Below are positions 10,141 through 31,410 of a stretch of 64,000 nt of DNA, piece after piece. The notes under the pieces are model-generated. The model did not search any database. It worked only from the letters and a program-made list of their open reading frames with translations, and had not been told where the DNA came from. A program made the translations under genes and the position numbers. The DNA comes from Sulfurimonas sp. (GTDB lineage: Bacteria > Campylobacterota > Campylobacteria > Campylobacterales > Sulfurimonadaceae), in NCBI GenBank assembly GCA_030247515.1, contig JAOTSA010000001.1:1255-65254 (forward strand). Direction: 5' to 3'. How positions within the stretch are numbered: the stretch's first letter is position 1; each line of letters starts with the position of its first letter.

Positions 10141-11811
10141 ATGCTTCAATTGATAGCGACACTGTTTTTCTCTTTTGTTCTATTTATAGGCTGTTCAAGT
10201 TCCAATAGCAGTGAGTCAAAAAGCGCATCTGTGCTTGGCGATATCAAAGATAAAATCAGTTGGTATGCCGACATGACGGATGATGTGCTTGTTATGGATC
10301 TCTCTGTTCCTGTTCCGAATGATTATCTATGCGCTCCATACACCAACCCGACAGGTGTGCTTAGAGCTTGTACACTTGAAGATGTCTTGAACGATACAGA
10401 TTCAAATGATGCGTATGAGCCTTTGTTGCACATAAAGATGCAGGCTGATGATTTTATCCCATCAAGCGAGCAGATGAATGCTTCCTTTGAGCAAAAAGGA
10501 AAGACAACAAGAAATGCTGATCAAAAATCATTTAGAGTGAAGTTGGATTCTACCGATGTGCTTTACAAAAAAGAGAGAACCTTTCAGCTTAACAAACACC
10601 CTTACGATAATTCAAGAGTTCGTAACAAGCTTGCTTTTGACCTTTTTAGAAATATACCGAACTTTACAAGTTTAAAAACACAATTTGTCAATTTGCGCAT
10701 TAACGGTGTTGATTATGGTCTCTATACGCATATAGAAAAAATGGGAAAAGAGTTTTTGATTAACCGTGGATGGAATGAAGATGATAACCTTTACAAGGCG
10801 CAAAATTTTGCTTTTCGTATGGTGAACGAACTCAACCTTAACTCATCAGGAAAGCCTATTAATCCTGATGCTTTTGATTCTGTCATAGAAATTGAGCGAG
10901 GTAAAGATCATACTAAGCTTGTTGCTATGCTCAATGCCATTGACGCTGCACAGACAGATGCCGAATTTGAAGCTGTTTTTAACAGATATTTTAACAGAAA
11001 CAATTACATCACATGGATGGCTATCAACCTTGTCATGGCAAACAAAGATACTGTTTCACAGAACTTTTATCTCTTTAATCCCTTAAATAGTGATACATTC
11101 TACTTTATGCCTTGGGACTATGATGGTACAGGAAGAGCAACGGAGAAGTACGCAAAATGGGAGCTTGGGATTGCTACATGGTGGGGCATACCTCTGCATC
11201 AAAAATTCTTAAAGGTCAAAAAAAATAGGGATGATGTGGATGCGATGGTTACAACACTTAGAAATCAGTATGTAACTCCAGCGGCGATTCAGGCAAGACT
11301 TGATGTGTATGAGCCTTTGATTACACCTTATTTGTCAGTTGATCCTGATGCCAATGACCTCTCAACACGACAGTGGCGAACGGAGTTTGATATTTTGATA
11401 CCAAGACTGGATGAAAATATAGCAAACTATAGAGGCGAGATAGGCGTACCGATGCCGTTTTGGCAATCTTTTGAGTATAACGGCGGAGTGTTAAAACTCA
11501 TGTGGGATGAAGCAGTTGACTTTGAGGGCGATGAGATAATTTACGATGTTCAGTGTGCCGATAATGTTGATTTTAACAATAGTATCGTCAATGAAACTGG
11601 CTTAAGCGTTGCGGCAGGTGATTTAAACATTACATCATGGGGTGAGGTAAGTTACACAAAAACTGTGCCAATGTCCACTGGAGTGAGATATTATATGAAG
11701 ATAACTGCAAGAGAGAAAAATAACCCTGCACATTATCAGATAGCTTTTGACAAAGAAGTAGAGATTAATGATGTTACCTATTTTGGCTTACTGGAGTTTG
11801 CACTTGAATGA
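10141..11811 (+). CDS. CotH-family kinase lipoprotein with C-terminal FN3-like domain
   Basis: Lipobox FIGC. CotH motifs 'QKSFRVKL', 'LNKHPYDNSRVRNKLAFDLF', 'YGLYTHIEK', 'QNFYL', 'MPWDYD'. Confidence 0.85.
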   Translation: MLQLIATLFFSFVLFIGCSSSNSSESKSASVLGDIKDKISWYADMTDDVLVMDLSVPVPNDYLCAPYTNPTGVLRACTLEDVLNDTDSNDAYEPLLHIKMQADDFIPSSEQMNASFEQKGKTTRNADQKSFRVKLDSTDVLYKKERTFQLNKHPYDNSRVRNKLAFDLFRNIPNFTSLKTQFVNLRINGVDYGLYTHIEKMGKEFLINRGWNEDDNLYKAQNFAFRMVNELNLNSSGKPINPDAFDSVIEIERGKDHTKLVAMLNAIDAAQTDAEFEAVFNRYFNRNNYITWMAINLVMANKDTVSQNFYLFNPLNSDTFYFMPWDYDGTGRATEKYAKWELGIATWWGIPLHQKFLKVKKNRDDVDAMVTTLRNQYVTPAAIQARLDVYEPLITPYLSVDPDANDLSTRQWRTEFDILIPRLDENIANYRGEIGVPMPFWQSFEYNGGVLKLMWDEAVDFEGDEIIYDVQCADNVDFNNSIVNETGLSVAAGDLNITSWGEVSYTKTVPMSTGVRYYMKITAREKNNPAHYQIAFDKEVEINDVTYFGLLEFALE

Positions 11812-28662: not shown

Positions 28663-31410
28663 ATGAATTGTTACTATTGTTGTAGATTTCTGTTTGTGTT
28701 TTTGTTTTTCACTGCATCACTTTTTGGTGCGCTTACAGATAAAAGCGTTATGGTTTACTATGGAAAAAATATCTCCTATCCAATGGTTGGGAGTGCTGAT
28801 TATATTATCGTGCAGCCTGAGCTTATCAACACAAAGAGCCATGGTTTTGGCGTTTACAAAGAAAAAATGTACGCATATGTAAGTGTTGGTGAGATAGACA
28901 GAAACATCAAAGAGTATAAAAATATACAAAAAAGCTGGATACTCGCCGAGAACAAAGCGTGGGCAAGTGATGTTTTGGATATAAAAAATGAAGAGTATCA
29001 AAAGTATCTCTTTGAAGTGATGATAGAACCCAGAATGAAAGCTGGGTTTAAAAACTTCTTTTTTGACACACTGGACTCTTATCAGTTGGCATGCAAAACA
29101 AAAGAAGACAGAGCGGCAAACGAGAAGGCTCTAGCCTCTTTTATAAACCTTTTTCATCAAAAGTATCCAGATGCAAAGCTAATCATCAACCGTGGTTTTG
29201 AAATCATCGAGAGTGTCCATGAGGCAGTGGAAGCGGTTTTGTTTGAATCCTACTTCATGGGAGTTGGCGGCGAAAAACTAGCTTACAAAGAGGTCACGGA
29301 TGAAGATAGAAAATGGCTTGATATTCATATAAATAAAATAAAATCATACGGCAAAGATGTCATAAGTTTGGAGTATTTGGACCAAAAAGATATGGCAAAG
29401 GCATCAGCTATTGTAGAAAAAGTAAAATCACGTGGAATGATTCCTTATGTTGCAAACCGTGAGCTTGACATGTATGGCATCTCTTCTAAAAATGCCATGA
29501 AACGTGAAGTTCTGACTTTGGTTAGTGAGGAAAAATACGACAAAGTATATAGTGACGCACATCGGTATGGTGCTTTGGTGTTGGAGTATATGGGCTACAT
29601 CCAAAAGCTGCATGACGTTAGAAAAGCTTTGCCTAAAATCGATGAGATACGACACTATGCGGGTGTTATCGTCTGGCTTGATGATGAGTACAAAGACCCA
29701 GAAAAGTTGATGTTATGGGTAAAAAGTGTAGCGTCACTTGGGATAAAAGTAGCGTTTGTGGATAATTTTGGAGCAAAAACAGATGATCCTGCTTTGGAGA
29801 TTTTGGGTATCAGCATAGATAAAAACGTAAAAAATATAAAGAAAATTCTACATCGGCATGCTATGATGGGTTTTGAAATTCAACCATCCTACCCACGCTC
29901 CTCCATGCAAATTTACTCAAAAATCAAAGAACCTTTACTCGTTTATGAAAATACAGACGGCACAACAACCGCTCCCGCAGCACTAACAGAGTGGGGAGGG
30001 TATGCACTCAAAGAGGCAAATATGTTGAGCATGAACGAGGATCATTTATGGGTTATAAACCCTTTTGAGTTTTTTGCCTCTGCACTCGGTCTTAAACCTC
30101 TTTTAGTACCAGACCCAACAACCCAAAATGGAAACAGACTGCTTTTTTCACATATAGACGGAGATGGAATTATGAACAGAGTTGAGGGAAACTCTGAACA
30201 TTTTTCTGGCGAGGTGGTTTTAGAAGATATTTTAAAAAAATACAAGATACCTCACTCTGTCTCTCTTGTAGGCGCAGAGATTGACAAGAATGGACTCTAC
30301 CCAGACATAGCGGACAAACTACAAGCTATCTCAAAAGAGATGTATAAACTCGAAAATGTAGAAGGGGCGACACACACTTTTACACACCCTTTTATATGGG
30401 GAAAAATTGTAAACAACACACTGGACGAACAGTACAGACTTAAAGTAAAAGGTTATAGTTTTTCCATAGAGCGGGAGATTTCTCAAACGCTTGATGATAT
30501 AAGCTCTCAGCTCTCACCGACACATAAACCCAAAGCAAAAACAGTTTTTTGGTCAGGAGATTGTTTGCCGCAAGAAGATGTGTTGGAGTATGTTTACTCA
30601 CATGATATTTTAAATATAAATGGCGGAGATACCCAGATAACAAAGATGAACCCTTGGCTCTCAAACATAGCATCGTTTGGTGTAGAGAGAGGAAGCTACT
30701 ATCAGATATATACAGGCGCACAAAATGAAAATATATATACAAATAACTGGTTAGGACCATTTTGTGGCTTTAAAAGGGTTGTCCAGACATTTGAACTTAC
30801 CAACTCTCCACGCAGATTTAAGCCCATAGATATCTACTACCACATGTACTCTGGTTCAAAAATGGCTTCACTTAAAGCGTTAGAGTATGTATTTGACTGG
30901 GCTATAAAACAGGATGTTATGCCTATCTTTACCTCCGAGTATATCCCTAAAGTGATGGACTTCTACACCGTTTCAATGGCAAATGATGGTGATGAGTGGT
31001 TGGTGGAGGGTATGAGGGATTTAAAAACGCTCCGCATAGAGAAAAAAGAGGCATCCGTTGACTTTGAATACTCCAAATCAACGGCAGGCTTAAAACATTT
31101 TGAAAATCACACCTATCTTAGTTTGGGTAATTCGCAGAAGCACTTTATAAAGGTAGATAAAAGCAAGGGTTACAAAAAAAGGAGCTATCTTGTCTCTTCC
31201 AACGCTAACATTACAGAGCATAAAAGTGAATCAAAGTCACAAAGCATCTCTTTTGACGGACATGTAGATTTGCGGCTAAGTTTTAGGATACAAGATAACT
31301 GCAAACTAACCTCCCAACCACAAGCAAGCCAGATACGCAAAGATAAAGAGATAACCTTTCTGGAGTATAAAGGTGTGAAAAAGGCGGGTATAAGCATTGT
31401 TTGCGAGTGA
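28663..31410 (+). CDS. pelA: PelA paralogue 2: bifunctional GH166/GH114-like hydrolase and deacetylase
   Basis: 'YAYVSVGE', 'FFDTLDSY', 'NRGFE', 'LFESY' (hydrolase); 'HIDGDG', 'THTFTHP', 'WSGDC', 'NINGG' (deacetylase). Confidence 0.92.
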   Translation: MNCYYCCRFLFVFLFFTASLFGALTDKSVMVYYGKNISYPMVGSADYIIVQPELINTKSHGFGVYKEKMYAYVSVGEIDRNIKEYKNIQKSWILAENKAWASDVLDIKNEEYQKYLFEVMIEPRMKAGFKNFFFDTLDSYQLACKTKEDRAANEKALASFINLFHQKYPDAKLIINRGFEIIESVHEAVEAVLFESYFMGVGGEKLAYKEVTDEDRKWLDIHINKIKSYGKDVISLEYLDQKDMAKASAIVEKVKSRGMIPYVANRELDMYGISSKNAMKREVLTLVSEEKYDKVYSDAHRYGALVLEYMGYIQKLHDVRKALPKIDEIRHYAGVIVWLDDEYKDPEKLMLWVKSVASLGIKVAFVDNFGAKTDDPALEILGISIDKNVKNIKKILHRHAMMGFEIQPSYPRSSMQIYSKIKEPLLVYENTDGTTTAPAALTEWGGYALKEANMLSMNEDHLWVINPFEFFASALGLKPLLVPDPTTQNGNRLLFSHIDGDGIMNRVEGNSEHFSGEVVLEDILKKYKIPHSVSLVGAEIDKNGLYPDIADKLQAISKEMYKLENVEGATHTFTHPFIWGKIVNNTLDEQYRLKVKGYSFSIEREISQTLDDISSQLSPTHKPKAKTVFWSGDCLPQEDVLEYVYSHDILNINGGDTQITKMNPWLSNIASFGVERGSYYQIYTGAQNENIYTNNWLGPFCGFKRVVQTFELTNSPRRFKPIDIYYHMYSGSKMASLKALEYVFDWAIKQDVMPIFTSEYIPKVMDFYTVSMANDGDEWLVEGMRDLKTLRIEKKEASVDFEYSKSTAGLKHFENHTYLSLGNSQKHFIKVDKSKGYKKRSYLVSSNANITEHKSESKSQSISFDGHVDLRLSFRIQDNCKLTSQPQASQIRKDKEITFLEYKGVKKAGISIVCE

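Follow-up and report, generated by a model that had tools for sequence, protein, structure and literature searches.

We analyzed a 64,000-nucleotide (nt) stretch of DNA from Sulfurimonas sp. (GenBank assembly GCA_030247515.1, contig JAOTSA010000001.1, forward-strand positions 1,255 to 65,254; hereafter the window), which carries an operon for the exopolysaccharide (EPS) Pel headed by a set of envelope genes that includes a CotH-family kinase. The reading we consider probable is that a Sulfurimonas-type pel operon captured this 5' envelope cassette and that the cassette, working from outside the cytoplasm, influences how Pel is made or exported. The reading builds on what was observed directly: the gene content of the locus, its synteny in relatives, a domain shared between the cassette porin and PelB, the conservation of catalytic residues in CotH, and RNA that continues over the junction between the porin gene and pelC. 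Work on Gram-positive bacteria raised the question of what CotH does for Pel, a widespread biofilm matrix polymer.

Twelve genes follow one another on the forward strand within 10141–31410 according to the table of open reading frames (ORFs): cotH, a PycTM::DUF3616 fusion (gene 2), a porin gene with a SPOR-type domain, and pelC-D-E-F-G-A1-B(N)-B(C)-A2. This layout had been proposed in a preliminary description of the DNA; the ORF table reproduced every junction quoted there, and profile searches confirmed the family names. A short gene for a helix-hairpin-helix (HhH) protein lies upstream, and counting it as a thirteenth member extends the forward-strand block to 9683–31410. The features are as follows (match values in brackets).

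9683–9934, forward strand: secreted HhH protein, ComEA/Cj0011c-like, 83 amino acids with signal peptide (PF12836 HHH_3, 3.5e-17).
10070–10075, forward strand: candidate −10 element, TATAAT, 66–71 nt 5' of the cotH ATG (read from the sequence).
10141–11811, forward strand: cotH, CotH-family atypical kinase, a lipoprotein (lipobox LFIG|C) with a beta-rich C-terminal domain (PF08757, 1.3e-57).
11768–13306, forward strand: gene 2, inner-membrane PycTM::DUF3616 protein with an alternative TTG start at 11804 (PycTM PF18967, 4e-16; DUF3616, 1e-12); a three-helix membrane module spans residues ~38–214 and a six-bladed periplasmic beta-propeller (DUF3616) residues ~216–508.
13303–15264, forward strand: porin, an outer-membrane barrel of the OprO/OprP family (Porin_O_P PF07396, 1.7e-37), made up of a signal peptide, a SPOR-type domain (13351–13584), a Lys/Glu-rich linker of ~190 amino acids and the barrel (residues 309–635).
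15295–15816, forward strand: pelC, lipoprotein (solved PelC chains 5T11, 3e-19, and 9H80, 9e-17).
15843–17204, forward strand: pelD, inner-membrane protein with a GGDEF-like receptor domain for cyclic di-GMP (PF16963, 1.4e-11).
17194–18414, forward strand: pelE, membrane protein with a TPR-like C-terminal region (assigned from position and conservation; TPR matches weak).
18399–20129, forward strand: pelF, GT4 glycosyltransferase (NF038011, 5e-175).
20129–21502, forward strand: pelG (PF16933, 1.3e-126).
21480–24043, forward strand: pelA1, a PelA paralog broken by a 1-nt deletion at 23456/57 (55% identity to PelA2).
24027–25088, forward strand: pelB(N), transmembrane helix and TPR (TPR_19, 5e-8).
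25085–28642, forward strand: pelB(C) (PelB barrel PF24604, 3.7e-35; TPR_15, 2.6e-28), made up of a signal peptide, SPOR-type domains at 25139–25372 and 25484–25717, a Lys/Glu/Ser-rich linker, a TPR region and a beta-barrel.
28663–31410, forward strand: pelA2, full-length PelA (hydrolase and deacetylase) and last gene of the operon (9CGY, 5e-128; GH114, 2e-15).
32039–33094, reverse strand: GalE/PelX-like NAD-dependent sugar 4-epimerase, convergent with the operon (PF01370, 7e-55).

From cotH to pelA2 the intergenic gaps are −44 (−8 from the TTG at 11804), −4, +30, +26, −11, −16, −1, −23, −17, −4 and +20 nt, and gene 2 and the porin gene meet in an ATGA overlap. Tight spacing of this kind is ordinary operon anatomy; synteny and RNA contigs support an operon more strongly. 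Scans for consensus promoters and terminators inside the cluster gave counts at or below shuffled expectation and were uninformative.

We surveyed 25 loci anchored on PelF and 25 more anchored on gene 2. At least 14 distinct genomes have cotH, gene 2, the porin gene and pelC in this order, with the module directly upstream of pelC (the window, L004, L005, L009, L017, L018, L023, L025, L026, L029, L030, L033, L034 and Sulfurimonas marina, L138). The proteins in these genomes have diverged considerably from those of the window, with identities of 39%–69% for CotH and 51%–66% for gene 2; the range for the module proteins together was put at 37%–66%. The complete genome of cultured S. marina (CP041165) has the order HhH–cotH–fusion–porin–pelC, as in the window. 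The best PelF matches came from metagenome-assembled genomes (MAGs) of Sulfurimonas, at no more than 86% identity, and the window sequence itself was present in wastewater, groundwater and hot-spring runs.

The porin and PelB are tied together by a domain of ~78 amino acids with four cysteines (CYTVQL...VRCGCFEK...YKYRF), found once at the porin N-terminus, twice in PelB(C) and nowhere else in the 64 kb. A hidden Markov model (HMM) of the domain matched the two PelB(C) copies at 1.7e-35 and 2.6e-35; the tandem pair is a feature of the window PelB(C), and the HMM scan gave a single copy per related locus. The most recurrent Pfam match was SPOR (PF05036), yet it was obtained for only 3 of 19 copies and stayed below threshold (best E 0.011), and a profile search of the domain against the PDB returned only a meaningless match (E = 4). 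An AlphaFold2 prediction, built from an alignment of 21 database homologs, reached a pLDDT (predicted local distance difference test) of 90.4 and showed a beta-alpha-beta-beta-alpha-beta topology; its top Foldseek match in the PDB was the SPOR domain of Bacillus subtilis CwlC (1x60), which aligned over the full length (probability 1.0, TM-score 0.56, E 0.025). SPOR-type is the best assignment for the domain common to the two proteins, and wall binding is predicted. The earlier proposal that a shared domain links porin and PelB holds up, with a SPOR-type fold and three copies in the window.

The distribution of the domain suggests an order of events. Its HMM was positive for PelB in almost every clade member, whether or not the module is present, and for porins it was positive in 17 of the 19 pel-linked loci examined and in none of ~20 porins that are not linked to pel. 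Identity between porin and PelB copies is 43%, and inside each group it is 49%–50%, so the transfer of the domain to the porin appears to be old; it also appears to postdate the joining of the module to pel. The porin linker (13836–14060) shows in-frame length differences of 171–189 nt in cDNA contigs from other samples, and porin homologs range from 395 to 719 amino acids, so the spacer between the SPOR-type domain and the barrel seems to be length-polymorphic.

RNA contigs run from the porin gene into pelC. Unitigs 15013–15283, 15254–15314 and 15285–15635 of metatranscriptome X3 tile the 30-nt porin–pelC gap, and a 1520-nt cDNA contig of X7, from a ~93% related strain, extends from the 3' end of the porin gene through the whole of pelC; carry-over of DNA is possible in both. 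Coverage in X3 includes cotH, gene 2, pelD, pelF, pelG and pelA1, and the depth of front genes and pel genes is alike and low there, contig depth being a poor measure of expression.

The CotH protein of the window matches Bacillus cereus CotH (5JD9, 9e-16). Equivalents of B. subtilis D228 (catalytic) and D251 (metal-binding) are kept in it and in all 17 aligned Sulfurimonas-type orthologs, within the motifs N-x-D, (Q/H)N and PWDYD; the distant L073 has PDD, KN and QWDLD instead. CotH is likely an active enzyme.

The AlphaFold2 model of gene 2 (mean pLDDT 77.6) consists of three long membrane helices, a cytoplasmic helical loop and then the beta-propeller, which should face the periplasm. Conservation within the protein is highest in the membrane module, which matches the PADLOC PycTM model (6e-20) and the models of CBASS 2TM effectors along almost their entire length; Pfam PycTM scores 59.7 bits against a cutoff of 27.2. 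The nearest solved folds to the propeller in Foldseek are Ava_4197 (2qe8) and paraoxonase PON1, both generic six-bladed hydrolase propellers. A phytase-like propeller, as first suggested, receives no backing from the fold search, and the Phytase-like Pfam match was faint and confined to one distant gene 2 homolog. Relatives of gene 2 number 3735 among 1.84 billion representative proteins; ~35 clusters have the full fusion architecture, and most of the others are free DUF3616 proteins of ~330 amino acids. The sole published phenotype for DUF3616 is that of a transposon mutant of Xanthomonas citri, which had less EPS, altered lipopolysaccharide and poorer biofilm (PMC3130047).

The porin barrel matches OprP (2O4V, 2e-11) and OprO (4RJW, 1e-8), and its residues aligned to OprP R59/R60, K109, K126 and R133 are basic.

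The HhH gene behaves as a further part of this set. In the window 206 nt separate it from cotH. It is a neighbor of cotH in at least 14 loci that have the module, and three arrangements occur: the HhH gene stands upstream on the same strand, is divergent (L026, L029 and L030), or is inserted between cotH and gene 2 (L032). The two genes share 26 nt in S. marina, and in relatives the HhH gene fills the region 5' of cotH. Among the loci compared, it was absent from module-free pel loci and from the versions of the module that are not linked to pel. By this pattern of occurrence, we regard the HhH gene as a fourth member of the front module.

We propose that the core of the cassette would be the PycTM::propeller protein with the OprO/P barrel, to which the CotH lipoprotein kinase and the secreted ComEA-like DNA-binding protein would have been added. 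After capture, the porin would have gained the kind of SPOR-type peptidoglycan-binding domain present in the PelB of this clade, which should bring it to those places on the wall where the Pel export pore sits, and the cassette would be transcribed through into pelC. CotH may phosphorylate a Pel-related substrate, either the polymer itself or the linkers rich in Lys, Glu and Ser that PelB and the porin contain, and the membrane module and porin may form a route for a phosphate-bearing anion. The cassette could in this way be the Gram-negative counterpart of the Gram-positive set of CotH, polyphosphate polymerase and membrane protein.

Several observations weigh against a captured cassette that acts on Pel. 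Nine related pel loci have no module and start at pelC after unrelated genes, and the module-free L001 has the PelF closest to that of the window (86%). The pel-linked cases all belong to one genus-level clade and may stem from a single capture event. Porins without the SPOR-type domain occur in L034 and in S. marina, although the module stands at pel in both. In an alignment to OprP (pairwise, ~20% identity), the positions of K121/D94/Y114 are occupied by G/N/K; the OprO/P family in the earlier label of a phosphate-selective porin is sound, and phosphate specificity is unproven. Contig depth in the cDNA of X5 and X6 is 5–48 over the front genes (10102–15060) and close to zero from pelC to pelB (15061–25500). 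This split could reflect stronger or separate expression of the front module, attenuation behind it, or strains that have the module but not this pel. The single long transcript envisaged at the outset is favored by the operon-like clustering and by the RNA contigs over porin–pelC, but not by the drop in depth after the porin in X5 and X6. The PycTM–porin pair is found without pel in L041, L042, L044, L045, L056–L066, L074, L134 and L137, and since the pair is this common without pel, its primary function appears to be independent of Pel. Finally, the substrate of CotH, the phosphoryl donor and the transported solute are all hypothetical in this reading.

Since nine related pel loci lack it, the front module appears to be accessory and not essential for the Pel machinery. 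This agrees with the preliminary description, which took the front three genes for an accessory envelope module; they are directly 5' of pelC in at least 14 genomes and absent from the nine. The neighborhood survey that it proposed found the module syntenic with pel in those genomes, but also the PycTM–porin core away from pel.

These free-standing versions are widespread. In distant Campylobacterota (Sulfurovum, Thiovulum, HyVt-572, L134 and L137), gene 2 and the porin gene are translationally coupled, with neither pel nor a SPOR-type domain; in eleven loci (L056–L066) a PycTM-only protein of 190 amino acids is paired with the porin; and in an Acidobacteria MAG (L074) the fusion gene is followed by the porin gene. 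The PycTM and OprO/P-porin pair appears to be the core of the module, older than the link to pel, and is a conserved, unstudied two-gene unit of sulfur-oxidizing Campylobacterota. At L041 and L058, where pel is absent, the pair is accompanied by CotH (Pfam, 1e-67 and 4e-74), and in Thiovulum (L042) a Cthe_2159 carbohydrate-binding beta-helix lipoprotein (8367–9998; 1e-88) takes the position of cotH and overlaps the start of the fusion gene.

Other lineages combine the parts differently. Two Cocleimonas (Gammaproteobacteria) MAGs have PycTM::DUF3616 followed within ~30 nt by a PelG homolog (PF16933, 4e-141), with no further pel gene within 8 kb of the pair. In two Pseudomonadota MAGs, PycTM and DUF3616 are encoded by separate genes side by side, and a CotH gene is oriented divergently to them. 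A possible hint that the membrane module may respond to a cyclic nucleotide comes from gammaproteobacterial loci L131 and L136, in which the fusion gene lies beside a Crp-type regulator that binds cyclic nucleotide monophosphates (cNMP) and a CHASE2 class III cyclase, and from a second gammaproteobacterial lineage (L133), in which it lies beside a cNMP-binding/rhodanese protein; such neighbors may point to ligand gating but not to defense. Stand-alone PycTM genes of Bacteroidota, Rhodothermales and Gemmatimonadota (L076–L130) have heterogeneous neighbors, as judged from naive ORF calls that are unreliable in high-GC DNA. A MAG labeled Cardiobacteriales (L028) holds a homolog of gene 2 (7216–8715; 63%) with no cotH, porin or pel within 7–10 kb; the contig may be mis-binned, or the homolog may be solitary there.

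The alternative that survives best, although we think it unlikely, is that the cassette is autonomous: a set for the acquisition of an anion (phosphate, polyphosphate or organophosphate) or for envelope stress, which landed once upstream of pel, was kept by descent and is read through without a function for Pel. It would account for the presence of the PycTM–porin pair, away from pel, in numerous Campylobacterota and an Acidobacteria MAG, for the many module-free pel loci, for the cDNA depth of the front genes above that of the pel genes in X5 and X6, and for a barrel of the OprO/P family. It fits poorly with a porin that has the PelB-type SPOR domain only where it is linked to pel, with an adjacency that has outlasted the divergence of CotH to ~39% identity, and with gaps of −4 and +30 nt spanned, at the porin–pelC junction, by RNA contigs. 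The fusion–PelG pair of Cocleimonas and the CotH–pel association of Gram-positive bacteria, both independent of the clade, also speak against it.

A more specific form of the captured-cassette reading is quite unlikely in our estimation. Here the PycTM module and the OprO/P barrel would make up a hitherto unrecognized, envelope-spanning and possibly nucleotide-gated anion conduit that feeds a phosphoryl donor (ATP, pyrophosphate or polyphosphate) to CotH, which would in turn phosphorylate, at wall sites marked by SPOR domains, either the Pel polymer or the machinery that exports it. If true, no earlier case of extracytoplasmic phosphorylation serving a Gram-negative exopolysaccharide would be on record, and the 2TM defense effectors of Pycsar and CBASS would be kin to a channel with a housekeeping role.

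Pel is cationic and cross-links extracellular DNA (eDNA) in Pseudomonas aeruginosa biofilms. A module that handles extracellular or periplasmic DNA instead of phosphate is conceivable: DNA would be bound by the ComEA-like protein, nucleotides or oligonucleotides would pass through the anion-selective barrel and the membrane module, and the whole set would organize a Pel–eDNA matrix. The company that the HhH gene keeps with the pel-linked module, in at least 14 loci and three arrangements, with an overlap with cotH in S. marina, speaks for such a role. We nevertheless judge it improbable: versions of the module away from pel lack the HhH gene, fold search and alignment gave no sign of nucleic-acid binding in the propeller or the porin, and a trimeric channel of the OprP type is too narrow for DNA. 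That gene 2 is a Pycsar- or CBASS-type antiphage effector beside pel by chance we reject as scarcely credible, in spite of the matches to PADLOC PycTM (6e-20), to CBASS 2TM models at near full length and to Pfam PycTM above threshold, given that neither the cluster nor its flanks (rnc, aroC, the NIT-domain gene, the HhH gene, relB/yafQ and the epimerase gene) contain a cyclase or CD-NTase, that gene 2 is fused to a propeller, translationally coupled to a porin and syntenic over more than 30 loci in housekeeping contexts, and that CotH and the porin have no PADLOC matches. The orphan defense effector of the preliminary description is therefore right as to homology and wrong as to function, there being neither a cyclase nor a defense context.

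Behind the cassette, all seven Pel functions are represented, with strong matches to PelF, PelG, PelD, PelC, the PelB barrel and TPR region, and PelA. The assignment of PelE is based on its place between pelD and pelF in all related loci. PelA2 aligns to P. aeruginosa PelA (9CGY) over 860 residues (29–891) and keeps the equivalent of E218 (FES). The hydrolase domain of PelA1 has lost ~64 residues relative to PelA2, and the site of the catalytic Glu is among them. Both copies retain intact deacetylase motifs, HIDGDG and HTFTHPF. Where related operons have no front module, one full-length PelA occupies the A1 position. The fission of pelB into N and C pieces is kept across the clade; both pelB fission and pelA rearrangement are already known from the literature.

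In the window assembly pelA1 falls into two ORFs (21480–23462 and 23513–24043), as the sequence lacks a base at 23456/57 (AAGCC-ATAAATG). In DNA contigs of X2, X4 and X8, three further samples, an extra C follows 23456, giving AAG CCC ATA AAT and an intact pelA1; one RNA contig has an extra T two bases beyond the break, and only X1, probably the source sample, matches the window. The gene is uninterrupted in relatives and in S. marina (853 amino acids). With the extra base in DNA of other samples and intact genes in relatives, the break would reflect variation between strains or a sequencing error in a homopolymer and would not be a split by design. We ruled out a programmed frameshift, there being no slippery site and other samples having the extra base.

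The genes rnc, aroC and a NIT-domain gene flank the cluster upstream. Between the NIT-domain gene and the HhH gene lies a palindromic element of ~120 bp (9544–9665) resembling a miniature inverted-repeat transposable element (MITE), with 20-bp terminal inverted repeats (TAGACTTCTTGCATAACCTA ... TAGGTTATGCAAGAAGTCTA) and three internal hairpins. Its DNA contig depth of ~75, against 10–12 in the flanks, indicates that it is multi-copy (cDNA depth is 460–530), and contigs of other samples skip ~115 nt; the element is therefore missing in other strains. In the region upstream of cotH, ARAGORN detected no tRNA and Rfam gave only sub-threshold miRNA noise, which fell on this palindromic element. In L026, TATAAT stands at a similar distance upstream as before the window cotH. 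We dropped a Campylobacter jejuni-type pho box 5' of cotH, for which a by-eye check gave only a loose GTTT-N-GTTT.

Downstream, a relB/yafQ toxin–antitoxin pair (31467–32020) separates pelA2 from the convergent epimerase gene, and its promoter (31451–31480; TTGACA-18-TATAAT) is the only perfect sigma-70 consensus in the scan. The epimerase gene directly follows pelB in seven related loci (76%–82% identity), and the enzyme probably supplies UDP-N-acetylgalactosamine (UDP-GalNAc).

Compared with pelABCDEFG of P. aeruginosa, the window has the order C-D-E-F-G-A-B, a split pelB whose product carries SPOR-type domains, a duplicated pelA with one copy lacking a functional hydrolase domain, and four extra genes at the front. 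The three-helix module of gene 2 is homologous to the PycTM and 2TM effectors of Pycsar and CBASS; unlike these, gene 2 has no cyclase partner, is fused to a propeller, is paired with a porin and sits in a conserved housekeeping context. The porin resembles OprP and OprO in scoring above the Porin_O_P threshold and in matching 2O4V and 4RJW, and it differs from them in its added SPOR-type domain and charged linker of ~190 amino acids and in having a PycTM gene, not pst or pho genes, as its partner.

The closest parallel is found in Gram-positive bacteria. The pelDEADAFG genes of streptococci, clostridia and bifidobacteria are directly adjoined by cotH (Whitfield et al. 2020, PMC7112168), and the accessory genes comprise cotH, a VTC-like polyphosphate polymerase gene, DUF4956 and DUF4832 (PMC7112168; Streptococcus intermedius SIR_1591–1594, PMC12345266). 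Deletion of SIR_1594, which encodes a secreted CotH with FN3, reduced Pel and aggregation (PMC12345266). The window shares with these clusters a secreted CotH that has a C-terminal beta-sandwich-like domain and is encoded contiguously with pel, a membrane protein together with a phosphate-related component, and the restriction of the accessory set to a subset of pel loci. It differs in belonging to a Gram-negative envelope, in having the set at the 5' end rather than the 3' end, and in the partners, which are a PycTM::beta-propeller protein, a SPOR-anchored barrel of OprO/P type and a ComEA-like protein; Pfam matches to VTC-like polyphosphate polymerase, DUF4956 or DUF4832 were absent from the 13 cluster proteins and the flanks.

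The preliminary description had named the system as the best candidate in the window for an undescribed one, which goes too far: the link of CotH to pel, with a phosphate theme, has been published for Gram-positive bacteria (PMC7112168, PMC12345266), and what is new is the Gram-negative version with other partners. In the searchable literature we found no Gram-negative CotH–Pel link, no PycTM::propeller and SPOR-porin partners, no ComEA-like member, no free-standing pair of PycTM and OprO/P porin, and no fusion–PelG pair as in Cocleimonas. That a CotH–Pel link also arose in a Gram-negative lineage, with other partners, argues that the link is functional and not accidental. It points to a homolog of phage-defense effectors, a propeller family with one reported EPS and biofilm phenotype, and an anion porin with the wall-binding domain of the Pel pore as the partners to consider, and the presence of the same cluster in cultured S. 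marina (CP041165) could make the question testable, provided that genetic tools can be set up for this bacterium.

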